A stretch of 64,000 nucleotides of DNA from Candidatus Sungiibacteriota bacterium (GCA_016201505.1 JACQCQ010000002.1:76750-140749), one strand, 5' to 3'. Positions 2,243 to 63,743 are shown, numbered from the stretch's first letter. The notes: generated by a model from the letters alone, not told the origin. Program-made: numbers and translations.

Positions 2243-2243
2243 T

Positions 2244-2480: not shown

Positions 2481-2895
2481 AGCCATGGAACGAACCTACG
2501 AGGAACTAAAAACGGGTGAATCTTTTTCATTTGAAGTTCTTATCGACGAAGATCTCGTGGCAGCCTTTCGTCAACTTTCCGGCGACAGAAATCCGCTGCA
2601 TGAAAAAACAGAATATGCGCGAGCCTCTTCATTTGGGAAGCCTGTAGTACATGGCATGATTGCCGGCGCTTTCTTTTCTCGACTTGTCGGCATGCATCTG
2701 CCGGGAAAATTTGGGCTCTATCTTTCCCAGACGCTTCATTTTCGAAAGCCGATCTTCTTCGGAGATAAGGTTACGATCCGCGGAGAAATACTTGAAAAAA
2801 GTGAGGCCATGAAGACCATACGGGTCAAGACCGAGGCACTGACTCAAGACGGGATTTGTACGGACGGAGAAGCGCTGGTACGTTTGCTCAAATAA
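2473..2895 (+). CDS. MaoC-like (R)-specific enoyl dehydratase, hot-dog fold
   Basis: About 140 aa. 'NPLHEKTEYARASSFGKPVVHGM' is the MaoC/hot-dog signature (NPxH…VHG). The start was chosen at the ATG at 2473; the ORF-track start is a TTG. Confidence 0.65.
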   Translation: MPEAMERTYEELKTGESFSFEVLIDEDLVAAFRQLSGDRNPLHEKTEYARASSFGKPVVHGMIAGAFFSRLVGMHLPGKFGLYLSQTLHFRKPIFFGDKVTIRGEILEKSEAMKTIRVKTEALTQDGICTDGEALVRLLK

Positions 2896-2898
2896 GTC

Positions 2899-4341: not shown

Positions 4342-4344
4342 TGC

Positions 4345-5292
4345 ATGAAAAATCTTACATTTTTTATTAAACTCGGCATTTTTTTGGGATTACTATCGCT
4401 CGCTGTTTTTTTAATTTCGGCAATCGGGCATGATTCAAATTCAGCCGCGGCCGTCATTTTAGATAAGCACGCGCTGCTTGCCGGCGCGCCATCGCCGAAA
4501 ATCATTTTAGTCGGCGGATCGAATATTACTTACGGTATTGACAGCCTGCGGATAGAGCGTGATGTCGGGCGTCCCGTCGTCAACATGGGTTATTCGCTCG
4601 GCGTTGGTTTGAGGTTCGCCCTAGAGGAAGTAAAACCAGATCTGAAAAAAGGCGACGCGGTTTTAGTGATTCCCGAATACGAACAATTTCAGGATTTATT
4701 TGAAGGCAATGGCGCGATCTTAGATTTAGTGCAGTATGATCCGTCGCTTGCGCGACACATAACTTCCTGGCGGCAGGTGCGCGAGATGGTTAAATATTTC
4801 CCGAACTTTTTGCAGAATAATTTTAAACGCGGCATGGTAGAGCCTCTCTTCCGTCGTTTCGGTCTTACCATTGGAAAAAGCGAACGCCGCTACTACCGCA
4901 GTGACTTTAATGCGGCTGGCGATCTCGTCGGCTATTTAAAAGATCCCCGATCCGATTCGATCGATATATCTCGATTAAATCCGGGGTATATCAATCCCGC
5001 TGCCATCGAGGCGCTCTCGAATTTCACCGCCTTTGCCAAACAAAAAGGCGCCCCGGTCGTTTTCATCTTCCCGTCTTACAGCACACCAGCCTATCAAGAA
5101 AATAAAGATACCGTCAATGCAATCTACAAAAAGCTCCAGCAGATTCGAGATCTGGTGATACCAGACTCGCCTAGCGATTTTATATTCTCCACGGGTCAAT
5201 TATTCGACAGCAGTTATCATTTGGTTGGCGCGGGTCGCGAAGATAGAACCTCTAGAATAATCGCGAAATTAAAAACGGTTTTGGCCCATTAA
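4345..5292 (+). CDS. DltD/AlgJ-like SGNH-fold accessory protein (membrane-anchored)
   Basis: 315 aa with an N-terminal TM helix. It has the block I 'ILVGGSNITYG' and a C-terminal 'DSSYHL' (DxxH) motif. It is positioned directly after the MBOAT gene, as dltD/algJ are. Confidence 0.55.
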   Translation: MKNLTFFIKLGIFLGLLSLAVFLISAIGHDSNSAAAVILDKHALLAGAPSPKIILVGGSNITYGIDSLRIERDVGRPVVNMGYSLGVGLRFALEEVKPDLKKGDAVLVIPEYEQFQDLFEGNGAILDLVQYDPSLARHITSWRQVREMVKYFPNFLQNNFKRGMVEPLFRRFGLTIGKSERRYYRSDFNAAGDLVGYLKDPRSDSIDISRLNPGYINPAAIEALSNFTAFAKQKGAPVVFIFPSYSTPAYQENKDTVNAIYKKLQQIRDLVIPDSPSDFIFSTGQLFDSSYHLVGAGREDRTSRIIAKLKTVLAH

Positions 5293-5327
5293 GCCAAAAC
5301 CCAAACAGGTATAGAATCAACCTGGCT

Positions 5328-6011
5328 ATGGAAAAGAAATCGGTGCCCTATATTCCGCAAGTTGAATTAAAAAAGCACGCCGGAGAAGTAAAAACCCAAC
5401 TGCGAGTTTCGGATACCTGGACTCTCCGAGAAAATATTTTTTGGGACTTCCTTGAGGCTCGCATTCCCAAAGAAGCGCGCATTTTAGATGTGGGCACGGG
5501 GCCGGGAACTCTCTTGCGCCAGCTGGAGAGCCGAGGCTGGCACAATTTAAAAGGCTTAGACATTGCTGACTTTATGGACGCTGACTTGAAGCCGAAGTTC
5601 GAGCTCGCCGTTACCGACTTGGATTTTGAGGCCGCACCCTTCGCCGCGAACAGTTTTGATTTAGTTTTCGCGCTTGAAGTTATTGAACACCTGGAGAATC
5701 CATTCCATTTTATTCGCGAAATGAGCCGTATTCTGGATGACGGGGGATATTGTATCTGTTCCGCGCCGAATCCATTTCACATCTGGAATAAAGTAAAATT
5801 CTTGCTGAAAGGGAATCTACAGCACTGGCACGTGTATAACGATCACATCACCTTTATGACAAAGGACGTTTTCAAAAAGACTGTGCTCCGCTATTTCTCA
5901 ATTGAAGAAATTAAATATCGCTGGGGCTATTTGCCGTATTTCCCAAAGATCAACATGCCGCGAACTGAATTATTTGGCAGGAATGTTTGCTATTTTCTTA
6001 AGAAGATTTGA
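5328..6011 (+). CDS. class I SAM-dependent methyltransferase
   Basis: 227 aa. Motif I is 'LDVGTGPGTL' and the motif II/III region is 'DLVFALEVIEHL'. Confidence 0.7.
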   Translation: MEKKSVPYIPQVELKKHAGEVKTQLRVSDTWTLRENIFWDFLEARIPKEARILDVGTGPGTLLRQLESRGWHNLKGLDIADFMDADLKPKFELAVTDLDFEAAPFAANSFDLVFALEVIEHLENPFHFIREMSRILDDGGYCICSAPNPFHIWNKVKFLLKGNLQHWHVYNDHITFMTKDVFKKTVLRYFSIEEIKYRWGYLPYFPKINMPRTELFGRNVCYFLKKI

Positions 6012-7356: not shown

Positions 7357-8724
7357 TTATTGCAGATGCCTAAGCAGAAAATTCCCGATGCGCTCACCAG
7401 ATTTTCCGTCGATTTTCCAGACTTGCTCGTCAAATAATTTTTTTCTGCCTGCTTTGTGAATTGATGGATTTTCCACATATTTTTTGGTGGCCTCGACTAA
7501 TTCTTTTTCGTTGTTTACTCTCCAGCAAGCGCCCGTTTCCTGAACGTATTTATAATGCGTGATGTCCATGCTGTGGCGCACCGATATGTAATAGGGTTTA
7601 TTTTTGTAGCCGTCAAAAGCGATCAAAACAGTCGGCTTATCGTAAATGGCCGCCTCAATCGTCAGGGTCGACCCCGTGTTCATGGTGACGTCACTCCAGT
7701 AAATCGTAGAAATTAAAAGTTTTACGTCTTCTTCGTCGAACTCGCGATCGCCCTTGATCTCGGCAATGCTTTTCCCCGGAATATGGAAGACGACATTCTT
7801 CCAGCTTTTGAGATCGGCCAGGTCAACTTCATATTTTGGATGCGAGCGCACAAAAATGATCGATGGGGGCAGTTCGCCGCGCTCGATGGCATGGTTTAGC
7901 ATCTTTATGTGGTCCCGCGGGTCGTCAATCGCCAGCACCCCGCCCATGAAATAGGTGATTAATTTTTTTGACGGGTCGATGTTGAACATTTTAAAAAACT
8001 CATCGCGCGTGAGGCGCCACTCCGCTTTCAGGTAGTTGTCATATTGCGGCAGGCCGACAACCGTAACTCGATTTTCAGGCATGTCGCCGATCCTCATCGC
8101 CTCGCCTTTTATGTAGGGATTGTTCACGATTAACTGATCCGGCTTTACGCGGAGCATAGTTTTTGAGGTAAAATTATCCCAGCTTTTGGTCATGCCGATT
8201 GATGGAATGCCGCGGCGCCTGGCCGCCTTGATCAACGCAACAGAAGTTCCGTGGATCATATTCGTCCCGAAAACCAAAGATGGATTATATTTTTCAAAGT
8301 ATTTGTCCCAGATCGCGTCCTCATGGAACAGGGGATCAACGGCACGCACCAACTCGCGCCAGACGCGAAAATGACCGAGAAGCCAGATCGCCCGCTTTAA
8401 GGGCAGTATGACTTTATTGGCCAGCGACGGATTTTCGTAGACGAGTTTATTTTGTCTGATCTTAATCGTTCCCGTCGGGATGCTGTTGTATGAAACGGTG
8501 CGGACAAACTGGCGCATCGGATGTAAGTCGTACTCTAAATCCTCGATCGGCTCGACCATAAAATTCAAAGCCCTGAACCGGGCTTTATAATTAGTGACTT
8601 TTTTTTGGGGCACGAACAAGACGACGGAGAGATCCGGCGTACGCGCGAGCAGGGGATACATATCCGAGAGCATCAGATTTTTCGTCTCGGCTTGAGTGGG
8701 CAGCGCGATAAACAGAGTTTTCAT
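7357..8724 (-). CDS. TagB/TagF-like glycosyl/glycerophosphotransferase (GT-B)
   Basis: 455 aa. The C-terminal 'ISTIYWSDVTMNTGSTLTIEAAIYDKPTVLIAFDGY' resembles the CDP-glycerol glycerophosphotransferase family. Confidence 0.45.
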   Translation of the reverse strand: MKTLFIALPTQAETKNLMLSDMYPLLARTPDLSVVLFVPQKKVTNYKARFRALNFMVEPIEDLEYDLHPMRQFVRTVSYNSIPTGTIKIRQNKLVYENPSLANKVILPLKRAIWLLGHFRVWRELVRAVDPLFHEDAIWDKYFEKYNPSLVFGTNMIHGTSVALIKAARRRGIPSIGMTKSWDNFTSKTMLRVKPDQLIVNNPYIKGEAMRIGDMPENRVTVVGLPQYDNYLKAEWRLTRDEFFKMFNIDPSKKLITYFMGGVLAIDDPRDHIKMLNHAIERGELPPSIIFVRSHPKYEVDLADLKSWKNVVFHIPGKSIAEIKGDREFDEEDVKLLISTIYWSDVTMNTGSTLTIEAAIYDKPTVLIAFDGYKNKPYYISVRHSMDITHYKYVQETGACWRVNNEKELVEATKKYVENPSIHKAGRKKLFDEQVWKIDGKSGERIGNFLLRHLQ

Positions 8725-8796: not shown

Positions 8797-9513
8797 ATGA
8801 ATGTACTTGGCGTTATTGGCGCTCGATCCGGCTCGAAGACTATCCAGAATAAAAATATCAAGCTGCTTTTCGGGAAGCCGCTTTTGGTGTGGATCGCCGA
8901 GGCCGCTAAGAATTCGCAGTATGTCAACCGAGTTATTGTTTCCACCGATTCGCCGGCATACGCCGAGATTGCCAAACAGTATGCCATCGAGGCCCCCTTT
9001 ATGCGTCCGGCGGAATTAGCCGAGGACCATGTGCCGGATTTTGACTATCTCTATCACGCCGCGACCTGGCTGCATGAAAATGAAGGCTGGAAAGCCGATA
9101 TCATTTTGAGGCTCCCGCCGACCTCGCCCCTTTGCACGACGGAGCATATTGACGCCTGCGTTAAACTTTTAATGGATGATCCGGAGGCTGACTCATCCCG
9201 GACTATTACCCCGGCCTCAAAGCATCCTTATAAGCTCTGGCGCATAAACGGCAACTATATCGAGCCATTTCTCTCGGAAGAATATACTGGCTTGAAAGAC
9301 GCGCATAATATGCCGAGACAGGCCTTCCCCAAAGCTTTCCAGCATGTTGACGTGATTGCGCTCCGCTGGAAAACCTTGGTCGACGATAAATCCATGGCGG
9401 GGAAAAAGATTCGTTTTCACGAAATTCCCAAAATGAATGCCATTGATATTGACACGGAAGCGGATTTTAAAATTGCCGAAGAGTTGTTAAAAAAAAGAAT
9501 GCATGCCGAATAA
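8797..9513 (+). CDS. neuA: acylneuraminate/KDN cytidylyltransferase (CMP-nonulosonic acid synthetase, NeuA family)
   Basis: 238 aa. The N-terminal 'GVIGARSGSKTIQNKN' is typical of CMP-NeuAc/CMP-Kdo synthetases. Confidence 0.7.
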   Translation: MNVLGVIGARSGSKTIQNKNIKLLFGKPLLVWIAEAAKNSQYVNRVIVSTDSPAYAEIAKQYAIEAPFMRPAELAEDHVPDFDYLYHAATWLHENEGWKADIILRLPPTSPLCTTEHIDACVKLLMDDPEADSSRTITPASKHPYKLWRINGNYIEPFLSEEYTGLKDAHNMPRQAFPKAFQHVDVIALRWKTLVDDKSMAGKKIRFHEIPKMNAIDIDTEADFKIAEELLKKRMHAE

Positions 9514-10333
9514 AACGACGAGCGCCCTTTTTGATTTAACCGCTGAAGTTGCCATTGTCACCGGCGGGCAGGGACAACTGGGTTCGGAATATGTAAAAAC
9601 ATTGGCGGGCGCCGGTGCCTCGGTCGCAATTTTCGATATTGCTCCGCGGGTGCGGGATTCAAACCAAAATCTCATCGATCAGAAGTGGCCGGTCTCGACG
9701 CACGTGGTTGATATTTTAGAAAAAGATCAAATTGCCGGTGCCTTTGATGCAGTTGAAAAAACATTCGGGACGCCGACGATATTGATAAATAACGCCGGGC
9801 TGGACTCGCCGCCCGATGCTTCGGAAAAAGACAACGGCCCGTTTGAGACCTATCCCGAGTCCTCTTGGGATGCCGTCGTAAATTCGCACATCAAGGGAGC
9901 GTTTTTGATGTCGCAAGAATTCATCGGCCGGGCGAAAAAAGCAAAAAAGAAAGCCAGCATAATTAACGTCTCTTCAACCTACGGCCTGGTTTCGCCTGAT
10001 CAGTCGATCTACGAGTTTCGCCGCAAAAACGGCGCGTCATTTTATAAGCCCGTTGCCTATTCGGTGGCTAAATCGGGCATTTTGAATTTGACGCGCTGGC
10101 TGGCTGAATACGGCGGGCCGTTCGGGATTCGAGTGAATACTCTGGTGCCCGGAGGTGTATTCGCAAATCAAGATAAAGAATTTATCAAAGAATATTCAAG
10201 GCGCACCATGATCGGCCGCATGGCGAATGTCGATGAATACAACGGCGCAATTTTATTTTTGGCTTCCGCGAAAGCCTCTGCCTATATGACCGGCTCGATG
10301 CTCGTCATTGACGGGGGCTGGACCGCAAAATGA
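9503..10333 (+). CDS. SDR family NAD(P)-dependent oxidoreductase
   Basis: 276 aa with the 'VAIVTGGQGQLG' Rossmann motif and the active-site 'YSVAKSG' (YxxxK). Confidence 0.75.
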   Translation: MPNKTTSALFDLTAEVAIVTGGQGQLGSEYVKTLAGAGASVAIFDIAPRVRDSNQNLIDQKWPVSTHVVDILEKDQIAGAFDAVEKTFGTPTILINNAGLDSPPDASEKDNGPFETYPESSWDAVVNSHIKGAFLMSQEFIGRAKKAKKKASIINVSSTYGLVSPDQSIYEFRRKNGASFYKPVAYSVAKSGILNLTRWLAEYGGPFGIRVNTLVPGGVFANQDKEFIKEYSRRTMIGRMANVDEYNGAILFLASAKASAYMTGSMLVIDGGWTAK

Positions 10334-10340
10334 AAAAGCT

Positions 10341-11804
10341 ATGGCCTATCCGCGAAAAGTTCTGCACTGGATAAACGATGCAGAGGTGAAGGCCTCCTCA
10401 AATTCGGTATTTAAAAAAATAAACCCGGCAACGGGCGCGGTTTTAGCCGAAGTTGCCCGCGGCAATACGGCAGACGTCGAAAAAGCAGTTGCGGCCGGCA
10501 AAGCCGCACTCCCAGCTTGGTCGCGGACGCTGGTCGTGCGTCGCGGCGAGATTCTGCGAAATGCGGTCCTGCTGATGATGCAAAAAAAAGCTGAAATCGC
10601 CGAAATCACGGCGAGAGAAAGCGGCAAGGCGGCGGCGCTCGCTTTAGGTGAAGCCAGCGCGGCCATCGAATGCGGGTTTTTCTTTGCCGGAGAAGGACGG
10701 CGCTATTTCGGCGAGGTCTTAACGTCCGCGGAGGCGCATCGCGAAGTAACCATGGTGCGGCAGGCCAGCGGGCTCGGTGTGCTGCTGACGCCATTTAATA
10801 ATCCCGCGCCGGGGGTTGCCTGGAAACTTTTTCCGGCGCTTCTCTGCGGAAACTCCGTGATTATCAAATCGCACGAGGACGTTCCGTATGTCGCCGTATG
10901 GTTTGCTAAAATTTTAAAAGAGGCGGGGTTACCGAAAGGCGTACTTTCGGTGGTGCAGGGAACGGGTTCCGAAGCCGGTGAGCCGCTGACCCGGCATCCC
11001 GATGTCGCCTTCATTAGTCTTACCGGGTCCCCCGCAACCGGTAAAAAAGTTTTACACGCCGCAGCCGATCGGCTGGCCAAAGTTTCGATTGAATCCGGCG
11101 GCAAAAATCCATTTATTGTTTGCGATGACGCGGATTTAGATCGGGCCGCAACGCTGGCTTCGGCCTCAGCCTTCATTGATGCCGGTCAGCGCTGTGCGGC
11201 CGCGAGCCGCATTATCGTAATGGAGGCCGTCTACGAAGAATTTAAGCAGAAATTATTGGAGCGGGTAAAAGCGCTTAAAGTCGGCGATCAAGAAGGAGAT
11301 AATTACGGCGCCATTATCAACGAAAAGCGCATGCGAGCCATTCTCGATTCGATTGAAACAGCCAAGACTCGTGGTGCGCGTGTTGTATGCGGCGGCGAGC
11401 GGCTCACTGATGAATCTCATAAAAACGGATTTTTCATTTCGCCTGCCGTTCTTGAGGAGGTAGATCCGGATGACGAGATTTCACAAAAAGAAATCTTCGG
11501 ACCGGTGACGATTCTCTACCGCGTGAAGACATTTGACGAGGCGGTGGCGCTTGCCAACAATTCGCCGTTTCGATTATCGAGCGCTTTGCACACCAAAAGC
11601 ATCCATCGTGCGCAAGAATTTAAAGAGCAGTACCGCGGCGGGGTCGTGCGCATCAACGGCGCAACGCACGGCAGTGAGCCGCATATGCCCTTTGGCGGAC
11701 TCGGCCTTTCGGGCAACGGCTGGCGCGAGCCGGGAACGAAGGCACTCGACTTTTATTCCGAGTGGAAGCAAATCTCGACAGATCATGATCCGTTAAAAAT
11801 TTAG
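10341..11804 (+). CDS. aldehyde dehydrogenase family protein
   Basis: The catalytic 'ESGGKNP' and Cys region 'GQRCAAASR' are present, with an NAD-binding 'GSPATGKKV'. The ATG at 10341 is preferred over the TTG at 10308. Confidence 0.75.
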   Translation: MAYPRKVLHWINDAEVKASSNSVFKKINPATGAVLAEVARGNTADVEKAVAAGKAALPAWSRTLVVRRGEILRNAVLLMMQKKAEIAEITARESGKAAALALGEASAAIECGFFFAGEGRRYFGEVLTSAEAHREVTMVRQASGLGVLLTPFNNPAPGVAWKLFPALLCGNSVIIKSHEDVPYVAVWFAKILKEAGLPKGVLSVVQGTGSEAGEPLTRHPDVAFISLTGSPATGKKVLHAAADRLAKVSIESGGKNPFIVCDDADLDRAATLASASAFIDAGQRCAAASRIIVMEAVYEEFKQKLLERVKALKVGDQEGDNYGAIINEKRMRAILDSIETAKTRGARVVCGGERLTDESHKNGFFISPAVLEEVDPDDEISQKEIFGPVTILYRVKTFDEAVALANNSPFRLSSALHTKSIHRAQEFKEQYRGGVVRINGATHGSEPHMPFGGLGLSGNGWREPGTKALDFYSEWKQISTDHDPLKI

Positions 11805-11814
11805 ATTAATTTAT

Positions 11815-13746
11815 ATGGGAGAATTAGGCGGGGTTATTACCGAAACGGCGAAAAGCCTTCAGTTCATACCGCTGTCCGAAATAAAGCGCGTCAAGAAAAG
11901 TATTCATGATCCGGTAAGCCGGGCAAAAATCTTGGCCGATATCTTTCGCCTAAACGCTCTTTATATGATTATGAATGCTGGTTCGGGCCATATCGGATCC
12001 TCATTTTCGGCGATGGATATTGTCACCTGGCTTTGGACTGAAGTTCTTAAAAATCCTAACAATGTCCGCGCCCAAGAATCGGATATTTATTTTTCCTCCA
12101 AAGGACATGACGCGCCGGGCCTCTACGCGGTGATGGCGGGCATTGGCAAGCTCGATTTTGATTTGATTCACGCACTGCGAAGAATGAACGGGTTACCGGG
12201 ACATCCGGATGTGGCAACACCGGGCATCGCCGCAAATACCGGTGCGTTGGGGATGGGAATTTCAAAAGCGAAGGGCATGGCGCTTGCGCGAAGGCTCGAA
12301 AATAAAAAGGGCACGATTTATGTCTTGACCGGCGATGGTGAATTGCAGGAAGGCCAGTTCTGGGAATCGCTTCAGCCAACGGCCAATGCAAAATTATCCG
12401 AGATTGTCGTCATCATCGATCATAATAAAATTCAGTCTGACACCTGGGTGCGCGAGACGAGTGATCTCGGCGATCTGGAATACAAGTTAAGAGCTTTTAG
12501 CTGGGAGGTCGCGCGATGTAATGGAAATGATGTTTTGGAGATAAAAGAGAAACTCGAATATTTTAGAAGTATCACTGATAAACCAAAGATGTTAATCGCC
12601 GATACGAAAAAGGGAGCTGGCGTCTCATTCATGGAGGAAGTCGCCGAAGATGGATTTTATAAATTTCATAGCGGGGCGCCTTCGCTCGGTGATTATGAGC
12701 GGGCAACGCGTGAATTGGTTGAAAAGATTAATCAGAGGCTCGGTGAGGTTTGGGTTCAGCCAATACAGATTGAAACGCGGAGCATGCCGGCTCGAACGAC
12801 CCCACAAAATCCTGAGAGGCTCGTTTCTGCCTATAGCGATGAATTGATTGCGCTCGCGAAAGAAAATAAAGACATCCTAGCGCTCGACGCCGACCTCATT
12901 TTAGACACAGGACTCATCCCATTTAAAAAACAATTTCCCGATAGATTTTTCGAGTGCGGGATTGCCGAGCAAGACATGGTCTCCACCGCGGGAGGCATGG
13001 CGCTCGCCGGGAAAATTCCGATTGTGCATTCGTTTGCTTGTTTCCTTTCAACTCGGCCGAACGAGCAGATCTATAACAATATTACGGAAAAGAAAAAGGT
13101 GATTTACGTTGCCTCGCTTGCGGGAGTTCTGCCTGCCGGTCCCGGGCACTCGCATCAATCGGTGCGCGACATTTCAGCCGTCGGCGGAATGCCGGGACTC
13201 ATCTTGATTGAGCCGGCGAATGAAGCGGAGACGAAAATGGCGCTTCGCTGGGCGGTTAATGAGAATACAGAAAGCACCTATCTTCGACTAGTCAGCATCC
13301 CATCGGAAATCAATTATAAGCTTCCGCACGCTCACCAATTGATCCGCGGGCAGGGGGTAAAGATTAAAGACGGAAATAAGGCTCTTATCATTTCGTATGG
13401 CCCCTCGATGCTGATTCAGGCAGTGAAGGCGGCGGAGATTCTCGATCGAAAAAGTATTTCAACGGCAGTCATCAATATGCCGTGGTTAAATTGTGTTGAC
13501 GCAAGTTGGCTGGAAAAAGAAATTCAGGGATTTTCGCTGGTTATGACGCTCGACGATCACTATACGAATTTTGGCCAGGGGATGCTGATTGCTGGCGAGT
13601 TGGGAAAAATAAATTTTCGAGGGAAAATTATAACACATGGTATAATGTATGAAATCCCCGCCTCGGGACAAAACACGGAAGTTTTGAAATATCACAAACT
13701 GTATGCGGAGTCTTTAGCGGCGATGGTTCAGGAAGGTATTGGATAA
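11815..13746 (+). CDS. transketolase (fused N- and C-terminal sections, TPP-dependent)
   Basis: 643 aa. It has the 'GSGHIGSSFSAMDIV' TPP-binding N-terminal motif, 'LTGDGELQEGQFWE', and a C-terminal pyrimidine/transketolase-C region. Confidence 0.7.
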   Translation: MGELGGVITETAKSLQFIPLSEIKRVKKSIHDPVSRAKILADIFRLNALYMIMNAGSGHIGSSFSAMDIVTWLWTEVLKNPNNVRAQESDIYFSSKGHDAPGLYAVMAGIGKLDFDLIHALRRMNGLPGHPDVATPGIAANTGALGMGISKAKGMALARRLENKKGTIYVLTGDGELQEGQFWESLQPTANAKLSEIVVIIDHNKIQSDTWVRETSDLGDLEYKLRAFSWEVARCNGNDVLEIKEKLEYFRSITDKPKMLIADTKKGAGVSFMEEVAEDGFYKFHSGAPSLGDYERATRELVEKINQRLGEVWVQPIQIETRSMPARTTPQNPERLVSAYSDELIALAKENKDILALDADLILDTGLIPFKKQFPDRFFECGIAEQDMVSTAGGMALAGKIPIVHSFACFLSTRPNEQIYNNITEKKKVIYVASLAGVLPAGPGHSHQSVRDISAVGGMPGLILIEPANEAETKMALRWAVNENTESTYLRLVSIPSEINYKLPHAHQLIRGQGVKIKDGNKALIISYGPSMLIQAVKAAEILDRKSISTAVINMPWLNCVDASWLEKEIQGFSLVMTLDDHYTNFGQGMLIAGELGKINFRGKIITHGIMYEIPASGQNTEVLKYHKLYAESLAAMVQEGIG

Positions 13747-13756
13747 AAGAGAGATC

Positions 13757-14317
13757 ATGGAGGGACTGACAAAAATCCAGGGGGAACGACTAGCTGCCGT
13801 TAAAGCACTCATCACGGACTGCGATGGTGTTTTTAACACAGGACATGTGTTTGATGGGCCCGGTGTGCCATCACGCAAGATGCGCACGCATCATGACAGC
13901 ATGGGGTTTGAGCTCCTGCGCCGCGCGGGGATACCGGTTTTGATTTTAACCGCTGAAGCCGAGGACTACATCAAGCCGGTGGCCGAAAAAATGACGCGCG
14001 CCTTTCCGGCCGTGCCGGTTGAATACGCGGCAAACGTCAAGGGTAAGGCGAAAATCGAAGTCGCCGAGAATTGGCTCATTCCTAAAGGAGTTACACTCGC
14101 CGAGGCAGCCTATATGGGGGATGACATCGGCGATTACAAATTGCTGATGGCGGCAGGCTTTGCTGCCGCCCCGAGCCAGGCAAATCGGATTCTCGATCAC
14201 GTCCCAAATCTTTGGAGATCGTCTTGTCGCGGCGGCGACGGCGCCATCCGGGAACTCTGTGATCTGATCCTTGAAGCCAAAGGCATCGATCCATTGAACC
14301 TTGTCGCCGATCGCTAG
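13757..14317 (+). CDS. HAD-superfamily KdsC-like phosphatase (Kdo-8-P/KDN-9-P phosphatase family)
   Basis: It carries the 'LITDCDGVFNTGHVFDG' motif I (DxDG) of the KdsC subfamily and is adjacent to a NeuB-like synthase. Confidence 0.6.
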   Translation: MEGLTKIQGERLAAVKALITDCDGVFNTGHVFDGPGVPSRKMRTHHDSMGFELLRRAGIPVLILTAEAEDYIKPVAEKMTRAFPAVPVEYAANVKGKAKIEVAENWLIPKGVTLAEAAYMGDDIGDYKLLMAAGFAAAPSQANRILDHVPNLWRSSCRGGDGAIRELCDLILEAKGIDPLNLVADR

Positions 14318-14479
14318 TTTTTTTGGGGCTTACATTCTCATGGCTCCAGCAGTCGGGTTCGTTTTTGTCCGCCGCACGAGTGCAGCAGCCGCTTATTTTT
14401 TCACTAGACATTTTAGCCGAATCTGGTATTTTAACGCTGAAACAAAGTCGGTTGTATTTTCGTTGTAGATTGTAAAAGG

Positions 14480-15577
14480 ATGAGATTTCCCCTAGGAGCA
14501 AAACTAAAGCGATTAATCACGACCTTACCCCATAAGGTAAAGGTCGGGAGTCAGTATGTCGGCCAAGGCAAGCCGGTATTTTGCATTGCCGAGATCGGTA
14601 ACAACCACAACGGCGATTTCGAGCTGGCTAAAAGAACGATTGAGGCCGCTAAAGACGCGGGAGCCCAGGCCGTGAAGTTCCAACGCCGAGCCGTAGAAGC
14701 CGTATTTGTGCGCGAGATGCGCGAGATGGCGTACGATAACCCGCGCTCGATGGCTCCAACCTACGGCGAGCATCGAAAAAAGCTTGAACTCCCGATTGAA
14801 CAGCTCCGCGAGTTAAAAGAATTTTCGGAGAGTCTGGGTCTGGTATTTTTTGTGACTCCCTTTGATAAAAAAAGCGCCGACGATCTTGAATCAATCAATA
14901 TTGGGGCCTACAAAATCGCTTCGTTTGATGTGACCAATCTTTCGCTTCTGGGCCATGTTGCTAAAAAGGGCAAGCCGATTCTGCTTTCAACCGGCGGCTC
15001 GACGCTTGAAGAAATAGATACGGCCATTGAGACGATTTTAAAATACAACAATCGGCTGATTGTAAATCACTGCACCTCGATGTATCCCACACCGGATGAG
15101 AATTTAGATTTAAACATGCTGCCGGTATTGCGGGAGCGATATAAACCTTTGCCGATCGGCTACTCGGGGCATGAGCCGGATTTTCTGCCTTCTGTTATCG
15201 CAGTGGCGCTCGGCGCTTCGGCTGTTGAGCGTCATTTTACGATGGACAAAACCATGCGCGGATCGGATCACCACATGTCGATTGAGCCCCCGGAGTTTAA
15301 AAAGATGGTAGATGACATTAGACGAATTACGGTTGCGCTTGGCGCCAAGGAAAAACGCATCCATGCCGGCGAAATTCCCATCCGCGAAAAACATGCTAAA
15401 AGCCTAGCCACCCGTGTCCGCATTCCGAAAGGCGCCGTGATTACGCGCGCGATGCTGACCGTCAAAAGTCCGGGTACGGGGCTCAAGCCCTCGATGGTTG
15501 ATTTCATTGTCGGTAAAACGGCGCGCTACGACATTGACGAGGACGCATTGATTAAAACCGATTCATTTGAAGTCTAG
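14480..15577 (+). CDS. neuB: N-acetylneuraminate/KDN-9-phosphate synthase family (NeuB) with C-terminal SAF domain
   Basis: 365 aa. 'CIAEIGNNHNGDFELAKRTIEAAKDAGAQAVKFQ' is the NeuB signature. A C-terminal SAF (antifreeze-like) domain is present. Confidence 0.8.
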   Translation: MRFPLGAKLKRLITTLPHKVKVGSQYVGQGKPVFCIAEIGNNHNGDFELAKRTIEAAKDAGAQAVKFQRRAVEAVFVREMREMAYDNPRSMAPTYGEHRKKLELPIEQLRELKEFSESLGLVFFVTPFDKKSADDLESINIGAYKIASFDVTNLSLLGHVAKKGKPILLSTGGSTLEEIDTAIETILKYNNRLIVNHCTSMYPTPDENLDLNMLPVLRERYKPLPIGYSGHEPDFLPSVIAVALGASAVERHFTMDKTMRGSDHHMSIEPPEFKKMVDDIRRITVALGAKEKRIHAGEIPIREKHAKSLATRVRIPKGAVITRAMLTVKSPGTGLKPSMVDFIVGKTARYDIDEDALIKTDSFEV

Positions 15578-15765: not shown

Positions 15766-16347
15766 GAATCCCGTTAGAAGCCGCGATCGCATACACGGGG
15801 TACAATGGTATGAAGCTCCTCAACATGAATAGTTTAACTCGAGCGATAACGCGAATGATCGCGATCTGCTTCTAACGGGATGAATCCCGTTAGAAGCCGC
15901 GATCGCATACACGGGGTACAATGGTATGAAGCTCCTCAACATCCTCAACATGAATAGTTTAACTCGAGCGATAGCGCGGATGATCGCGATCCCGCTACCA
16001 CAAATCCTTCTTGGATCTGGCTACGGGACAAGCATACTATGACAGATGTATTATTAACTACGACTCGCCCCGTAGTCACCGAGTCTATGAGGTGTACTCA
16101 CGGGGTCTGCTTCTAACGGGATGAATCCCGTTAGAAGCCGCGATCGCGAAAACCAATCTTTCCGAGAGTTTATTTTAATACTTAATGTTAGGCAGACTCC
16201 GCGTTTGATCGCGATCCCGCTACCACAAATCCTCCATGGATTTGGCTACGGGACTAGAGAGCTATGACAGGCTTACTATTAACTACGGCTCGCCCCGTAG
16301 TCACCGAGCACGTGAGGTGTACTACTGGGGTCTGCTTCTAAACGGGA
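15766..16347. mobile_element. array of three MITE-like units bounded by the inverted termini GAATCCCGTTAGAAGCCGCGATCGC … GCGATC(T/C)GCTTCTAACGGGAT
   Basis: Unit junctions form 45-bp palindromes (ctgcttctaacgggatgaatcccgttagaagccgcgatcgc). Units 1 and 2 share a 5' module. Units 2 and 3 share a 140-nt 3' module (gatcgcgatcccgctaccacaaatcc…). A solo copy lies at 58884–58994. Confidence 0.6.
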
Positions 16348-18569
16348 TGAATTCAGGCAGGACTCTTGAGATCTGGCTTTCCAATATCGTGAAATGGGGC
16401 CTGTTTTTGATTTTGCCCCTGCCGCTGGTGGTTTGGGGCATCTTTTTATTTCCCTATATCACCGGGCGCAATTTTTTATTTCGCATCTTGATTGAAATTT
16501 TGGCGGCCCTGTGGGTCGGGCTGCTGGTTCTTTCTAAAACCTATCGGCCGCGGCTTACCTGGCTGACGCGCGCGGTCGCGGTCTTTCTGTTTGTCGTGAC
16601 CCTGGCTGACTTGTTCGGCATTAATCCCTATCGCAGTTTTTGGTCGAACAACGAACGCATGGAGGGGCTTATCGCTTTACTCCATATGGTGCTGTTTTAT
16701 TTCATTGCGAGTTCGGTATTTAGAAAGTACACGCACTGGAAAGCGTTTTTCTACACCTCAACGGCTATAAGCTTGTTGGTCGCGCTCTATGGGCTCGCGC
16801 AGAAATTCGGCCTGGCTCAATCTATCCAAGGCGGTACGCGCGTTGATGGAACGATCGGCAATCCGGATTATTTAGCCTCCTATTTGATGTTCCATATTTT
16901 CTTCTTACTCTTTTTTCTCTGGCGTGAACGAATTGCGTTGCTGCGGTGGTTTTCATGGGCGGTGATCGTCTTCGAATTCTACATTATTTATTTAACGGCC
17001 ACGCGGGGGGTTGTGCTCGCCATGCTCACGGCTTTCGGCCTGGTGACAATCGTATTTGCCATCCGCAGGCCGAAAGATCGGGTTGAAAACATTTTACGCC
17101 GGGTTTCTATATCGGCACTCGCCGTCATCATAATCGCGGTCGGTTCAATTTTTCTTCTGCGCCACGACCCGCGTATTTTACAAAATCCGGTGCTTTCGCG
17201 ATTCGCTACCATTTCGACTCAAGATCGGACCGTTCAGTCGCGATTTTTTATATGGCATATCGCTTGGCAGGGAGTAAAAGAGCATCCCGTGCTCGGCTGG
17301 GGTCAGGAGAACTTCTATTACGTGTTTAATAAATATTTTGATCCGCATCTCTGGTCATCGGAGCCGTGGTTCGATCGGTCACACGACATTTTCTTCGACT
17401 GGCTGATTCACGCCGGCGTCTTGGGGCTTCTTTCATATCTTTCGGTTCTGGCCGCCGGGTTTTACACCATCTGGCGGGCGCAAAAGCTAGAGGCGATCTC
17501 TTTCTATGAGATGATGATCCTGGGAGGTGTCTTGCTCGCCTATTTCCTGCAGAATATTTTTGTCTTTGATAATTTCCAGACGTACTTCTTATTGTTTGTA
17601 ACCTTAGGCTTTGCCGAGTTTCTAATACTCCGCGGCGAGGAAAGTAAAACACTGATGGCCCCAGTCGTGCCAAATCGGCTGCCTATGGCGCTTGGTATAA
17701 CATCCGGCGCAGGCATTGTTACACTCATTCTCATTTACCTCTTGAATGTAAAGCCCATGATCGCGTCAGCCGATTTGATCGGTGCATTGCAATTGCAAAG
17801 CCAGCACGCTTCCGTCAACGATGTAAAAGCCCAGTTTCAAAAGGTCTACGATGCGGATACCTTTGTCAGCGGCGAGGCAACGGAGCAGTTAGCCGCCATG
17901 GTACGAGGGGTATTGTCGTCAGCTACGCCGCAGGATGCCAAAAGTTTTATTGACTTTGCTGTTCTCCACCTGCAGGATCTTACTAATATAGCAAATCCGG
18001 ATGCGAAACACCTGCTTTTCCTTGGTTCTGCTTTTAACACGGGCGTCCGATTCGATCAGGCCTATGCCCAAAAGGCTCTCGATGCTCTCAATAAGGCTAA
18101 AAACCTGGCACCCCAAAAACAGCAGATTTATTTTGAACTAGCGAACACGTATTTGATCGCGGGGAATTTAAATGACGCCATCCAGACTCTGCAGCGGGTA
18201 GTGGATCTTGACCCAGCCTACCCAGGGGCAGAGTTAAATCTCGGCATTGTGGCGCTGCTTGCCGCTAGACGCGATATTGCCGATCCGGCCATCGCGAGAT
18301 ACGAAAGTCTTCCCAAAGCGCCGGACGCCAGTGAATTAGAGAGGCTCGTCCAGGTGTATATTCAGGTGAGCGATATGAAAGGCGCGAGACGTGTCATGGA
18401 AGAACTGTTGAAAATCGATGACCGCAACTCACAGTATTGGGCTCAATATGCCGCTATCCTGGCTGCACTGGGCGATAAGACTGACGCCAAAACGGCTGCG
18501 GAAAAAGCGGCCGAAATCGATCCCAGTCTCAACACCGAACTGCAGCAGTTTTTGAAGACGCTTAAATAA
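16347..18569 (+). CDS. O-antigen ligase/polymerase (Wzy_C)-like polytopic membrane protein with C-terminal TPR repeats
   Basis: About 740 aa with many TM helices and a 'TATRGVVLAMLTAFGLV' Wzy_C-like block. The C-terminal 250 aa are TPR-like. The ORF-track start at 16236 lies inside the repeat array, so the ATG at 16347 is preferred. Confidence 0.6.
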   Translation: MNSGRTLEIWLSNIVKWGLFLILPLPLVVWGIFLFPYITGRNFLFRILIEILAALWVGLLVLSKTYRPRLTWLTRAVAVFLFVVTLADLFGINPYRSFWSNNERMEGLIALLHMVLFYFIASSVFRKYTHWKAFFYTSTAISLLVALYGLAQKFGLAQSIQGGTRVDGTIGNPDYLASYLMFHIFFLLFFLWRERIALLRWFSWAVIVFEFYIIYLTATRGVVLAMLTAFGLVTIVFAIRRPKDRVENILRRVSISALAVIIIAVGSIFLLRHDPRILQNPVLSRFATISTQDRTVQSRFFIWHIAWQGVKEHPVLGWGQENFYYVFNKYFDPHLWSSEPWFDRSHDIFFDWLIHAGVLGLLSYLSVLAAGFYTIWRAQKLEAISFYEMMILGGVLLAYFLQNIFVFDNFQTYFLLFVTLGFAEFLILRGEESKTLMAPVVPNRLPMALGITSGAGIVTLILIYLLNVKPMIASADLIGALQLQSQHASVNDVKAQFQKVYDADTFVSGEATEQLAAMVRGVLSSATPQDAKSFIDFAVLHLQDLTNIANPDAKHLLFLGSAFNTGVRFDQAYAQKALDALNKAKNLAPQKQQIYFELANTYLIAGNLNDAIQTLQRVVDLDPAYPGAELNLGIVALLAARRDIADPAIARYESLPKAPDASELERLVQVYIQVSDMKGARRVMEELLKIDDRNSQYWAQYAAILAALGDKTDAKTAAEKAAEIDPSLNTELQQFLKTLK

Positions 18570-18612
18570 TCCCAAAGAAACTTTCTACTTTTCTCGTCGG
18601 TTATAAAGTAGG

Positions 18613-19539
18613 ATGAGACAGCAAAAGCTTGCGGTGGGCGTTGTGGGGGTTGGCATGGTAGGTACGCCCCTAGCTCGCTGGTTTTTAGAACGTCAGGGTT
18701 ACGTGCGCCGGGAGAATCTTTTTTTGTCTGACCTTAAGCCCGAAAAGGAAATGCCCGATGACGTCAATCAAGCTGACGTTATTTTTATTTCAGTTCCCAC
18801 GCCGTCCCTCGGCGATAGATCCTGTGATATCTCGCGGGTGGCACATGCGATCCAATCTATTAGCGGTGAAAAGATTATTGTTATCAAATCGACTGTGCCG
18901 CCCGGAACGACCGAACATTTCCAAAATCTTTATCCAAGACATAAGTTTTTATTTAATCCCGAGAATTTAACCGAACGGAATGCCTGGGAAGATTTTGTCC
19001 GGCCTGACGCCCAGATTGTAGGTTTTACCGAACACGCCAAAGATGCTGCTATGCCGGTCCTGGCGTTATTGCCGAAAGCTCCTTTCATGTCGCCTTGGGG
19101 GATACAGACCTATCGACGAACCAGTATTACGGCCACCGAGGCAGAGATAATTAAATATGCGCGGAACGTGTTTTTTGCGCGTAAGGTGGTCTTCGCCAAC
19201 CTTTTGGCGAAGTTTTCTAAAGCCATGGGCGCGGATTATGAAAACGTGCGCAGTGGCATGTCGGCTGACTTTCGTGTCGGCGACTCGCACCTGGATGTAC
19301 ATCACAACGCTTACCTAGGATTTGGTGGATACTGCTTGCCCAAAGATGTCGACGCGTTTATCGCCGAATTAAAGAAGAAGAATTTGACCAAGGAAGCAGC
19401 CGTCGTTCTGGCTGATCGGGAATATAATCGGAAGCTATTGCTATCCCAGGGCCTTACGCTTGAGGATGCGAGTGTTCATGACGGTGAGTGGATCAAGCGT
19501 AAAATTGCGCAGACGGCATCACTACCTTCCGGCGCGTGA
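18613..19539 (+). CDS. UDP-glucose/GDP-mannose dehydrogenase family protein (short form)
   Basis: 308 aa with an N-terminal 'VGVVGVGMVGTPLA' NAD-binding motif and a central Cys region 'GFGGYCLPKD'. It is shorter than a typical UgdH. Confidence 0.6.
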   Translation: MRQQKLAVGVVGVGMVGTPLARWFLERQGYVRRENLFLSDLKPEKEMPDDVNQADVIFISVPTPSLGDRSCDISRVAHAIQSISGEKIIVIKSTVPPGTTEHFQNLYPRHKFLFNPENLTERNAWEDFVRPDAQIVGFTEHAKDAAMPVLALLPKAPFMSPWGIQTYRRTSITATEAEIIKYARNVFFARKVVFANLLAKFSKAMGADYENVRSGMSADFRVGDSHLDVHHNAYLGFGGYCLPKDVDAFIAELKKKNLTKEAAVVLADREYNRKLLLSQGLTLEDASVHDGEWIKRKIAQTASLPSGA

Positions 19540-62885: not shown

Positions 62886-63743
62886 ATGCGTTTAGATGAC
62901 GAAAAACTTAAATTTCTAGAAACAAAAGCCAACGAGATTCGCCAGTCGATTATTGGGATGCTGGTGGCTGCGGGCTCCGGCCATTCTGCCGGACCATTGG
63001 GGATGGCCGATGTTTTTGCGGCTCTTTATTTTCACTCGCTTGCGCTGGACCCTAAAAATCCGTCGTGGGAGGGACGCGATCGGCTCGTCCTTTCAAACGG
63101 GCATATTTGCCCGGTGTTATATGCGACCATGGCGCATGCCGGATATTTTCCTGTTGAAGAATTAAAAACACTGCGTAAATTCGGGACTCGTCTCCAAGGT
63201 CATCCACATAGGACTAGTCTTCCCGGGCTCGAGACCTCATCTGGTCCGCTTGGTTCCGGCCTTTCGCAAGCCATTGGTATGGCCCTGGGACTTCGCATGG
63301 ATAAAAAATTAAACTGGGTTTTGTGTTTGATGAGCGATGGCGAACAGGATGAGGGGCAAACTTGGGAAGCCGTACTCCAGGCGGGAAAAGAACGACTATA
63401 CAATCTGATCTGCATCATGGATCGCAATAATATCCAGATTGACGGCAACACCGAAGACATCATGCCGCTTGAGCCCTTGAAGGCCAAATACGAGGCTTTT
63501 AACTGGCATGTTTTAGAGATTGACGGGCATAATTTCGACCAAATTATCTCGGCCATTGACGAGGCCAAGGCCATTTACGAAAAACCGAAGATGATTATTG
63601 CCCACACCATTCCCGGGAAGGGCGTTGATTTCATGGAGCGCAGATTTGAGTGGCATGGTGTTCCGCCCAACAAAGAACAGGCCGAAATTGCCCTTGAGGA
63701 GCTACGCACTCTGGGCGGTAGAATAACCAGTGAACATCAATAG
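62886..63743 (+). CDS. transketolase, N-terminal (TPP-binding) subunit
   Basis: It has 'GSGHSAGPLGMADVFAALYF' and 'DGEQDEGQTWEA' motifs. It is in operon context with rpiB and rpe. Confidence 0.8.
   Translation: MRLDDEKLKFLETKANEIRQSIIGMLVAAGSGHSAGPLGMADVFAALYFHSLALDPKNPSWEGRDRLVLSNGHICPVLYATMAHAGYFPVEELKTLRKFGTRLQGHPHRTSLPGLETSSGPLGSGLSQAIGMALGLRMDKKLNWVLCLMSDGEQDEGQTWEAVLQAGKERLYNLICIMDRNNIQIDGNTEDIMPLEPLKAKYEAFNWHVLEIDGHNFDQIISAIDEAKAIYEKPKMIIAHTIPGKGVDFMERRFEWHGVPPNKEQAEIALEELRTLGGRITSEHQ

Follow-up and report, generated by a model that had tools for sequence, protein, structure and literature searches.

What could a full-length transketolase be doing among genes for nonulosonic acid synthesis? 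The question is raised by a 64,000-nucleotide stretch of DNA (the window) from a CPR bacterium, Candidatus Sungiibacteriota, in which six co-directional ORFs fill positions 8797-15577. Nonulosonic acids play a major part in microbial surface chemistry, in immune mimicry and in phage/host recognition and, to our knowledge, their known diversity stems from epimerisation, amination and acylation, with no case of carbon-chain editing. The initial annotation had placed in this interval a NeuA-like cytidylyltransferase, a KdsC-like HAD phosphatase and a NeuB-family synthase, with an SDR, an aldehyde dehydrogenase (ALDH) and a transketolase (TK) between them. It had suggested that the latter three remodel the sugar acceptor before condensation with PEP, leading to a non-standard ulosonic acid. 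Our analysis retains a non-standard product as probable, on the grounds of a dedicated TK family in a conserved cassette, and points toward tailoring after condensation instead. With a confidence that stops a little short of even, we propose that the locus serves to make an ulosonic acid with a truncated side chain, activated with CMP and destined for a cell-surface glycan.

Gene content and context of the locus

Pfam and NCBIfam profile searches of the translated ORFs recovered all the domains named previously, the SDR, the ALDH and the full-length TK lying as described between the other genes (Table 1). The first two genes overlap by 11 nt, the following gaps measure 7, 10 and 10 nt, and 162 nt precede neuB. 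This tight spacing agrees with the idea of one operon, but scans for promoters and terminators returned nothing above shuffled expectation, and a six-gene operon is therefore no more than plausible. The ALDH gene likely starts at the ATG in position 10341 (487 aa, with the same call on an independent contig), a TTG at 10308 being the alternative; for the phosphatase gene, the likely start is 13757 and the alternative is a TTG at 13739.

Table 1. Genes of the window discussed in the text
Feature	Length (aa)	Position	Strand	Main match
Candidate CMP-ulosonate glycosyltransferase	455	7357..8724	-	C-terminal region, NF046086 (BFO_1060 family), 48.2 bits (cutoff 200)
CMP-ulosonate synthetase (NeuA/PseF-like cytidylyltransferase)	238	8797..9513	+	CTP_transf_3 (PF02348), 76.8 bits
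ElaC-like SDR	276	9503..10333	+	adh_short_C2, 121.9 bits
ALDH	487	10341..11804	+	Pfam Aldedh, 488.8 bits
Transketolase-like ThDP enzyme (TK)	643	11815..13746	+	Transketolase_N, Transket_pyr, Transketolase_C
KdsC-type HAD phosphatase	186	13757..14317	+	NF058599, E 2.3e-23
NeuB-family PEP-condensing ulosonate synthase	365	14480..15577	+	PF03102, 260.4 bits; SAF (PF08666), 32.6 bits
Wzy_C/O-antigen-ligase-TPR protein		16236-18569	+	Pfam match
Truncated NDP-sugar dehydrogenase		18613-19539	+	Pfam match
Initiating sugar transferase Bac_transf		19522-20856	-	Pfam match
GT4 glycosyltransferase		20857-22014	-	Pfam match
rpiB		61082-61540		
rpe		61594-62271		
Orphan transketolase N-terminal half, outside the cassette	285	62886..63743	+	Transketolase_N, 199.8 bits

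Beside the cassette, genes for glycan assembly extend from 16236 to 22014, and families c28, c23 and c7 of this context were seen again in other cassette loci. The gene for the 455-aa glycosyltransferase is divergent from the cassette.

When NCBIfam equivalog cutoffs were applied to the six cassette proteins, all of them scored below, and annotation therefore gives no substrates. The synthase has the catalytic and SAF domains of the NeuB family and can be aligned over the full length with N. meningitidis NeuB, its best PDB relative (172 bits); it is a NeuB-family enzyme and not a member of the Kdo8P or AFP clade. Its scores against TIGR03569 (N-acetylneuraminate synthase, 310.2 bits against a cutoff of 399.65) and TIGR03586 (pseudaminate synthase, 252 against 340.25) both fall short, so that these models cannot assign its substrate. 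The phosphatase carries the HAD motifs DxDG (as DCDGV) and GDDxxD (as GDDIGD). Its top NCBIfam match is the equivalog model of Bacteroides thetaiotaomicron KDN-9-P phosphatase, NF058599, yet at 83.1 bits it stays below the cutoff of 180, and it scores 59.7 bits against 208 with KdsC. The cytidylyltransferase has the CTP_transf_3 domain and reaches 122 of the 205.7 bits of the PseF equivalog. In gene content, the locus resembles the B. thetaiotaomicron KDN pathway, which likewise combines a NeuB-family synthase, a KdsC-type HAD phosphatase and a CMP-transferase, but has no SDR, ALDH or TK.

In Tannerella forsythia, homologues of BFO_1060 are genetically shown Pse/Leg transferases (PMC5420450). 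The match of the 455-aa protein to this family is confined to its C-terminal part and lies below the cutoff, and a role as ulosonate transferase is a lead rather than a family membership.

The transketolase family and its genomic neighbours

Our results support the view that the 643-aa protein belongs to a distinct family, a dedicated paralogue of a glycan pathway rather than a housekeeping enzyme, since it falls below every NCBIfam TK cutoff (best equivalog 360 bits against 488), is about 30% identical to human TKT as estimated by eye from the alignment, and co-occurs with SDR, ALDH, cytidylyltransferase and NeuB genes. It groups apart from housekeeping transketolases, in a family with 51-61% identity over more than 10 phyla; the GTDB species genomes yielded at least 594 confirmed stretches of it. 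Carriers include CPR, Melainabacteria, Acidobacteriota, Chloroflexota, Gemmatimonadota, Nitrospirota, Proteobacteria, Chlorobium and Spirochaetes, among others.

The initial annotation had also held this enzyme to be dedicated, arguing from a second, split transketolase in a pentose-phosphate operon at 62.9 kb. An N-terminal half does lie there, about 600 nt 3' of rpiB and rpe, but no C-terminal half was found in the window or in the following 1.4 kb. In addition, tblastn of the window revealed no second TK pyrimidine-binding or C-terminal domain, and the gene next to the N-terminal half (311 aa, on L082) has no Pfam match. With only an orphan N-terminal half present, this argument for dedication is weak.

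The initial annotation had proposed a check for co-occurrence of TK with neuB. Among 40 loci whose TK gene is flanked by 6 kb or more on either side, and with partners scored within 9 kb, NeuB is present in 33, the SDR in 38, the cytidylyltransferase in 37 and the ALDH in 35; a BFO_1060-like transferase family (cluster c6) lies near the TK in 11. Dozens of genomes, spread over many phyla, have the same gene set around their TK homologues, far more than chance would produce. Variants include a Moorena locus with only the cytidylyltransferase and TK, and a HAD-SDR fusion (L057). Pairwise distances of TK, ALDH and SDR correlate among themselves with r 0.51-0.65, compared with 0.23-0.36 against the cytidylyltransferase, and no partner follows the TK more closely than the ALDH (r 0.65). 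We found no description of this cassette in the searchable literature.

The genes that would supply the synthase are interchangeable, whereas the SDR/TK/ALDH trio is constant. A KdsC-like HAD phosphatase occurs in 15 of the 40 loci and NeuC in 12, never both together; the NeuC is genuine, scoring 336 bits where the cutoff is 236, and in some loci with neither gene other HAD phosphatases adjoin the TK. Across genomes, NeuB splits into clades that match the HAD- and NeuC-type supply, that of the window clustering with CPR and HAD-type NeuBs, apart from the NeuC-associated ones. An interchangeable supply, split NeuB clades and a constant trio point toward tailoring after condensation, and the trio would most simply act on the common product, the nonulosonate. 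Remodelling of the acceptor ahead of PEP condensation, as first suggested, finds no support in this pattern.

Active sites and a possible side-chain truncation

Residues of the TK were mapped by a pairwise HMMER alignment to human TKT, at about 30% identity, and their conservation was counted over 69 family members, with residue roles taken from PMC11387542. Like canonical transketolases (E. coli TktA, yeast TKL1, human TKT), the protein has the three-domain fold, the GDG...N metal/ThDP motif, the Glu that activates the cofactor and the donor-ketol-binding histidines. All 69 members keep H59, H98, H130, D174, N204, H285, E385, H447 and R491, and the equivalents of the sugar-hydroxyl binders H26, H100, H261 and H473 of E. 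coli, and of its R520, are retained. Unlike the canonical enzymes, the cassette TK resides in glycan clusters instead of pentose-phosphate operons, and residues of the sugar-phosphate channel are replaced: R358 by V/I337, H461 by L435 (68/69) and D469 by P443 (67/69), in E. coli and family numbering respectively. By this mapping, the family would lack the Asp and two of the four phosphate ligands that grip the distal part of a sugar phosphate. The apparent loss of the Asp, which binds the donor C4-OH, fits a substrate with a pyranose ring oxygen at that place. Because R491 (equivalent to R520) persists, as does a Ser/Thr/Cys at the S385 position, a phosphorylated substrate or acceptor is possible.

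The best PDB relative of the SDR is 6UH2 (140.8 bits, 39% identity over 240 residues; next match, 92 bits), the molecular-replacement model for ElaC, a proposed CMP-8-keto-legionaminate reductase whose role at C8 was put forward from genetics, structures and docking (PMC13656337). The likeness to ElaC rests on 6UH2 as a go-between and on the described motifs and loop of ElaC, rather than on a direct alignment: besides its closeness to 6UH2, the SDR has the motifs S-x-Y, I-Y and P-x-x-Y-x3-K, with its Y-x3-K pair, and an elongated Ser-to-Tyr loop (28-residue spacing). Being ElaC-like, it probably acts on the tail of a nonulosonate. In this regard, the ElaABC system of Acinetobacter baumannii KL49 and Vibrio vulnificus (8-epi-legionaminic acid) also joins a cytidylyltransferase with oxidoreductases that tailor C8 of a preformed nonulosonate, and its SDR, homologous to that of the window via 6UH2, has the same extended loop. 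However, ElaABC oxidises and then re-reduces, with epimerisation as the outcome, whereas the keto intermediate of the cassette would be cleaved and oxidised; moreover, it employs neither a ThDP enzyme nor an ALDH. ElaC works as a reductase beside a distinct Gfo/Idh/MocA oxidase, ElaA, whereas such an oxidase is absent from the six-gene cassette and was not noted among the annotated recurrent gene clusters.

The ALDH has the catalytic motifs ESGGKNP and GQRCAA of its superfamily, with the catalytic Cys and the general-base Glu. Its best NCBIfam matches are alpha-ketoglutarate semialdehyde and 2,5-dioxovalerate dehydrogenases (405 and 398 bits, below the cutoffs, that of the KGSADH equivalog being 770), families that oxidise the terminal aldehyde of a 2-keto-3-deoxy acid.

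From the gene content, the domain-level families, the cassette's conservation in many phyla and the substitutions in the TK active site, we infer substrates, step order and product as follows. Starting from PEP and an aldose phosphate (plausibly mannose-6-P), the synthase would form a nonulosonate 9-phosphate by condensation, and the KdsC-like phosphatase would strip the phosphate. The ElaC-like SDR would then oxidise the C8 hydroxyl to a ketone, and the resulting tail of the 8-keto nonulosonate, CH2OH-C(=O)-CHOH, would be a transketolase donor ketol of natural D-threo configuration. The TK-like enzyme would split C7-C8, leaving an aldehyde at C7, while the two-carbon unit would be held on ThDP and afterwards handed to an acceptor or released; the ALDH would turn the C7 aldehyde into a carboxylate. 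Activation by the cytidylyltransferase could come before or after tailoring, and the BFO_1060-like transferase would attach the sugar to the glycan. Chemical logic favours such a route, since each product would be the substrate of the next enzyme (secondary alcohol, ketol, aldehyde, acid). The HAD-SDR fusion and the closer correlation of TK, ALDH and SDR distances also speak in its favour. In line with this notion, no Pse/Leg-type dehydratase or aminotransferase was consistently linked among the annotated recurrent gene clusters around TK, and the sugar should therefore retain the 7-OH and 9-OH needed for cleavage.

Other readings have to be weighed against this route. Sugar phosphates would still be possible for a TK that keeps R491 and all the ketol-binding histidines, the window has a phosphatase-type route, which needs a sugar phosphate, and the steps need not follow the order of the genes. 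These points leave some room for TK, ALDH and SDR building or remodelling an unusual aldose (phosphate) that NeuB then condenses with PEP, which we nonetheless consider unlikely. The trio is equally present beside NeuC and NeuB, which already give ManNAc directly; a transketolase would yield a ketose or a standard shortened aldose phosphate, and the ALDH would destroy the very aldehyde that NeuB needs. The ElaC-like SDR, with its probable action on the nonulosonate tail, and the apparent loss from the TK of two phosphate ligands and the stereo-selecting Asp argue in the same direction. It is quite unlikely, too, that SDR and TK truncate the side chain while the ALDH detoxifies or consumes the two-carbon piece set free, converting glycolaldehyde to glycolate, with the sugar bearing the C7 aldehyde as the real intermediate or product, to be reduced, aminated or left hydrated. 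The ALDH occurs in most loci and its distances track those of TK, and no glycolate-using ligase or acyltransferase is conserved in the cassette. On the other hand, SDR and TK persist where the ALDH is missing (L002, L005, L069 and L071), and its family matches are generic, lactaldehyde and glyceraldehyde dehydrogenases included. Furthermore, a Streptomyces variant without ALDH has the order NeuB-SDR-TK and then genes for a reductase, a HAD and a class-III aminotransferase, the last being another aldehyde-consuming enzyme at the ALDH's place; this variant also suits the main route proposed above.

Transketolase-fold enzymes that decarboxylate 2-keto acids do exist (DXS; AniP, PMC11387542), and the 643-aa protein also matches DXS models. 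That the cassette enzyme decarboxylates the ulosonic acid itself, or some other 2-keto acid, as its donor, with the ALDH oxidising the resulting aldehyde or acyloin, is nevertheless improbable, for the family keeps the full histidine set for the ketose CH2OH and hydroxyls that AniP has lost (PMC11387542), and such a reaction would remove the C1-C2 unit of the ulosonate needed by the tightly linked cytidylyltransferase. As for the protein being the organism's own pentose-phosphate transketolase, in a glycan cluster by happenstance, CPR genomes are small, and the orphan half near rpiB/rpe does not demonstrate a complete second enzyme in the window. The presence of this family, within the same cassette, in bacteria with large genomes and from many phyla, together with scores below all TK equivalog cutoffs and near-universal substitutions at substrate-binding positions (L435 and P443), makes this highly improbable.

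The predicted sugar and related systems

Truncation of the side chain after condensation would lead to 3-deoxy-hept-2-ulosaric acid, predicted to be L-arabino; we know of no natural C7 ulosaric acid of this configuration. More broadly, and with somewhat less assurance than for the locus itself, we suggest a widespread, horizontally spread pathway in which a specialised TK, with an ElaC-like dehydrogenase and an ALDH, would remove two carbons from the glycerol side chain of sialic-acid/Kdn-type sugars. Its products would be previously unrecognised CMP-activated C7 dicarboxylic "heptulosaric" surface sugars in CPR, Acidobacteriota, Melainabacteria and many others. If true, ThDP-dependent C-C cleavage would be seen for the first time in the tailoring of nucleotide sugars or ulosonic acids, and the dedicated TK would extend sugar tailoring by a new kind of reaction. 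Hundreds of lineages, most of them uncultured and CPR with their nearly uncharacterised envelopes among them, would then be predicted to have a new acidic sugar. The predicted masses, about 222.04 Da (C7H10O8), 263.06 Da for the 5-N-acetyl form and about 527.08 Da for the CMP adduct, are searchable in existing DMB/nucleotide-sugar surveys. In addition, the changes of Asp to Pro, His to Leu and Arg to Val would mark a transketolase whose acceptor channel has been re-shaped in nature, which is of interest for biocatalysis.

Tailoring of a terminal carbon through an aldehyde before incorporation into a glycan has a parallel in the Kdo8N pathway of Shewanella (KdnB oxidase and KdnA aminotransferase), which, however, involves no C-C cleavage, relies on a metal-dependent alcohol oxidase and yields an amine rather than a carboxylate. 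The predicted product also shares its composition, C7H10O8, and its 2-keto-3-deoxy dicarboxylic character with Dha, of which it would be an isomer. Dha is D-lyxo, whereas NeuB-type condensation followed by C7-C8 cleavage of a Kdn/Neu-type sugar predicts L-arabino, so that Dha itself would not be the expected product of the cassette. The biosynthesis and the activated form of Dha, a plant/rhizobial sugar, are unknown (PMC12168206, PMC3355719), and the cassette would provide a bacterial precedent for the making of 2-keto-3-deoxy dicarboxylic sugars.

A nonulosonate cassette and its transketolase

The six closely packed genes at 8797-15577 (+) are read as a nonulosonate pathway to which a module proposed to edit the carbon chain, one without known precedent, has been joined, and their domain content, as read in the initial annotation, is borne out by profile matches and motifs (see table). 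In the searchable literature, no account of a transketolase within a nonulosonate cluster came to light, and the NulO survey papers examined leave transketolase unmentioned. None of the six proteins reaches the curated NCBIfam equivalog cutoff of any model, so that their exact substrates are not readable from annotation, and promoter and terminator scans gave nothing above shuffled expectation. The setting is a surface-glycan locus, with a Wzy_C/TPR protein, an initiating sugar transferase and a GT4 protein recognized by profile matches 3' of the cassette. The BFO_1060 family, weakly matched by the divergent gene on the other side, has Tannerella members whose role as pseudaminic/legionaminic acid transferases is established genetically (PMC5420450).

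Features of the window, with the observation attached to each
Feature	Position	Strand	Observation
ACP-dependent glycan acylation set, 5' of the cassette	162-6011	+	4'-phosphopantetheinyl transferase, FkbH-domain protein (291 bits, above cutoff), small ACP, MaoC dehydratase, DltB-like MBOAT, unknown 315-aa protein, methyltransferase
22-bp perfect palindrome TTCGATAGACTAGTCTATCGAA	7323-7344		forms the centre of a hairpin (18-bp stem) that separates convergent genes
Divergent gene, 455 aa	7357-8724	divergent to cassette	C-terminus: weak BFO_1060 family match
Cytidylyltransferase	8797-9513	+	CTP_transf_3 domain
Short-chain dehydrogenase/reductase (SDR), classical type	9503-10333	+	domain content
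Aldehyde dehydrogenase (ALDH)	10341-11804	+	most likely start ATG 10341; same start called on an independent contig
Transketolase-like protein (TK), 643 aa	11815-13746	+	all three transketolase domains
HAD phosphatase, KdsC/KDN-9-P-phosphatase-like	13757-14317	+	motifs DCDGV, GDDxGD
NeuB-family synthase	14480-15577	+	carries SAF domain
NDP-sugar dehydrogenase homologue, 308 aa	18613-19539	+	covers profile positions ~62 to 294 of 413
LSU rRNA	50889-57015	+	spans 6.1 kb vs 2987-nt model
LAGLIDADG endonuclease ORF	57114-57560	+	just beyond annotated LSU rRNA 3' end
5S rRNA	58511-58628	+	3' of LSU rRNA
Second, identical copy of TTCGATAGACTAGTCTATCGAA	62273-62294		at gene end, as is the first
Transketolase N-terminal half	62886-63743	+	~600 nt 3' of rpiB and rpe

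The nearest relatives of TK (55-64% identity) belong to Vampirovibrio, Spirochaetes and a wide range of CPR groups. When a single genome was scanned for each GTDB species, at least 594 stretches carrying the family were confirmed, the best 80 of which show 51-61% identity and span more than 10 phyla; PLSDB contains a single member above 40% identity, carried by an unannotated linear replicon of Streptomyces. The six window proteins were compared by tblastn with the family loci from the GTDB scan, and partners were scored within 9 kb of TK in the 40 loci having at least 6 kb on either side of it. Among the matches listed, the SDR is present in 38/40 loci, the cytidylyltransferase in 37, the ALDH in 35 and NeuB in 33. 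The usual order is NeuB-HAD-SDR-ALDH-cytidylyltransferase-TK in Proteobacteria, Melainabacteria, Nitrospirota and one spirochaete, and SDR-TK-ALDH-NeuC-NeuB-cytidylyltransferase in Acidobacteriota. The conserved cassette is well supported, and the counts include the co-occurrence of TK with neuB. The best solved relative of TK, human TKT, shares only ~30% identity by eye from the alignment, and TK reaches 360 bits with the best transketolase equivalog model, whose cutoff is 488.

Judged from its sequence and neighbourhood, TK is a glycan-pathway paralogue and not a housekeeping enzyme, in agreement with the dedicated role proposed for it in the initial annotation. Part of the original argument was the presence of a second, split transketolase near the end of the window. 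An N-terminal half does lie there, near rpiB and rpe, and is followed by a gene for a 311-aa protein without Pfam match (1911-2846 of locus L082). No C-terminal half was found in the window or in the downstream contig stretch examined, nor does the window hold a second pyrimidine-binding or C-terminal transketolase domain, and that argument is weaker because the N-terminal half stands alone.

Residues of the TK active site were mapped through a full-length alignment to human TKT and tallied in 69 family members. The equivalents of E. coli H26, H66, H100, H261, H473 and R520 are fully conserved, together with the GDG...N motif and the cofactor Glu; the D469 equivalent is Pro in 67/69 members, that of H461 is Leu in 68/69, and that of R358 is Val/Ile. 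In the E. coli enzyme, substrate phosphate is bound by R358, S385, H461 and R520 and sugar hydroxyls by H26, H100, H261, D469 and H473, with D469 selecting the stereoisomer (PMC11387542), and specificity is known to be set at these positions (PMC7661550). Because of this pattern of retained and lost residues, the family still appears suited to a CH2OH-C(=O)-CHOH donor, but one whose distal part differs, although the retained Arg (R520 equivalent) could still bind phosphate.

Proposed chemistry and the stage at which it acts

The trio of SDR, TK and ALDH is the constant part across loci, and the aldose supply is interchangeable. Among the matches listed, 15/40 loci carry a KdsC-like HAD and 12/40 a bona fide hydrolysing UDP-GlcNAc 2-epimerase, NeuC (336 bits, cutoff 236); the two are found together in none of the 40. 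Other HAD phosphatases adjoin TK in some loci that have neither, and the NeuB proteins split into separate clades matching the HAD/NeuC context. Pairwise distances of SDR, TK and ALDH correlate mutually with r 0.51-0.65, versus 0.23-0.36 with the cytidylyltransferase, which is a weak statistic. Genes for a Pse/Leg-type dehydratase or aminotransferase show no consistent linkage to the cassette loci, which fits a sugar retaining its 7-OH and 9-OH.

Among solved structures, 6UH2 is far ahead of any other as a relative of the SDR (140.8 bits, 39% identity; next 92 bits); it served as the molecular-replacement model for ElaC (PMC13656337). Genetics, crystal structures and docking led to the proposal that ElaC, the SDR of the ElaABC module of A. 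baumannii and V. vulnificus, reduces CMP-8-keto-legionaminic acid, and the authors of that study assigned its long Ser-Tyr loop to CMP binding (PMC13656337). The likeness of the window SDR to ElaC, drawn via 6UH2 and the description of ElaC, comprises the motifs S-x-Y, I-Y and P-x-x-Y-x3-K and an unusually long loop from the catalytic Ser to Tyr. In ElaABC, however, ElaC is a reductase paired with a separate oxidase, whereas the cassette lacks that oxidase.

We propose, as a testable hypothesis that is quite possible but held tentatively, that the SDR oxidizes C8, TK cleaves C7-C8 and the ALDH oxidizes the resulting end. If a nonulosonate of the Kdn or Neu type were oxidized at C8, its tail would become CH2OH(C9)-C(=O)(C8)-CHOH(C7), which, read from C9, would be D-threo, the configuration of natural transketolase donors; the 'C4' of this donor would be C6, whose oxygen lies within the pyranose ring. 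ThDP-dependent cleavage by TK would then yield a C7 aldehyde, to be converted into a carboxylate by the ALDH, whose best family matches act on the terminal aldehyde of a 2-keto-3-deoxy acid. The predicted product would be a 3-deoxy-hept-2-ulosaric acid, with the 5-acetamido form expected where the locus is of the NeuC type; the cytidylyltransferase would activate this sugar and the BFO_1060-like enzyme would transfer it. By analogy with ElaC, the CMP form may be what the trio tailors; a HAD-SDR fusion and variants devoid of the cytidylyltransferase suggest tailoring of the free sugar.

Stereochemical reasoning predicts the L-arabino configuration, a name in line with that of sialic acid's known C7 periodate analogue. 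On reasoning alone, the plant and rhizobial sugar Dha was rejected as the product, since NeuB-type condensation with C7-C8 cleavage leads to L-arabino and Dha is D-lyxo. According to reviews, the biosynthesis and activated form of Dha, a related heptulosaric acid, are still unknown (PMC12168206, PMC3355719).

The initial annotation had instead placed the trio before PEP condensation, where it could build or remodel the acceptor. The interchangeable aldose supply, the ElaC-like SDR and the TK active-site pattern all argue for action after condensation, which leaves the earlier order unlikely. A variant that retains the side-chain truncation, yet has the ALDH handle the released glycolaldehyde, is rather improbable as well. 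Should TK be a decarboxylating, DXS/AniP-like user of a 2-keto acid, its retained histidine set and its tight link to the cytidylyltransferase would be hard to accommodate, and we regard this possibility as very doubtful; that TK is a plain housekeeping transketolase seems to us extremely improbable. Extension by two carbons to an 11-carbon sugar was discarded because the ALDH and TK would compete for one aldehyde and because the ElaC-like SDR acts on secondary alcohols, and synthesis of a glycolyl substituent was rejected given that the cassette has no conserved ligase or acyltransferase.

Variant loci

In a verrucomicrobial locus (L057, 6779-8110), a KdsC-like phosphatase and the SDR form a true fusion, which fits the truncation model. 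The locus L083 of Streptomyces sp. NBC_01237 (NZ_CP108509.1, 808979-830856) reads NeuB-SDR-TK-RmlD-like reductase-HAD-class III aminotransferase and is without ALDH, as are a few other cassette loci; its aminotransferase, a different aldehyde-consuming enzyme at the equivalent place, also fits. This sub-cluster adjoins hydroxyphenylglycine-type genes (dioxygenase, FMN dehydrogenase, aminotransferase) and a LuxR regulator, and looks like a secondary-metabolite cluster making an amino sugar acid by the same SDR/TK chemistry.

By eye, an enolase-superfamily, sugar-acid dehydratase-like gene (family c41) was assigned in L022, L057, L071 and L072, and a DHDPS/NanA-like gene (family c43) in L047, L061, L066 and L081; these and the L057 fusion suggest further pathway variants. 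In Moorena (L032, L027), TK is accompanied only by a cytidylyltransferase and a HAD-like phosphatase, with no NeuB, SDR or ALDH within 10 kb, an arrangement that the model leaves unexplained.

Other features of the window

The acylation set 5' of the cassette suggests that the glycan is also O-acylated with a glycerate-derived unit. The NDP-sugar dehydrogenase homologue appears to lack both ends and may be a pseudogene or mis-assembled. The length of the LSU rRNA implies ~3 kb of insertions, and the archaeal Rfam model matches it best, though the host is a CPR bacterium and an archaeal origin was rejected; no 16S rRNA or tRNA was found in the 64-kb window. Unlinked rRNA genes with insertions are known in CPR. 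Palindromes of the TTCGATAGACTAGTCTATCGAA type are not expected by chance, and this one may be a repeated terminator or a REP-like element.
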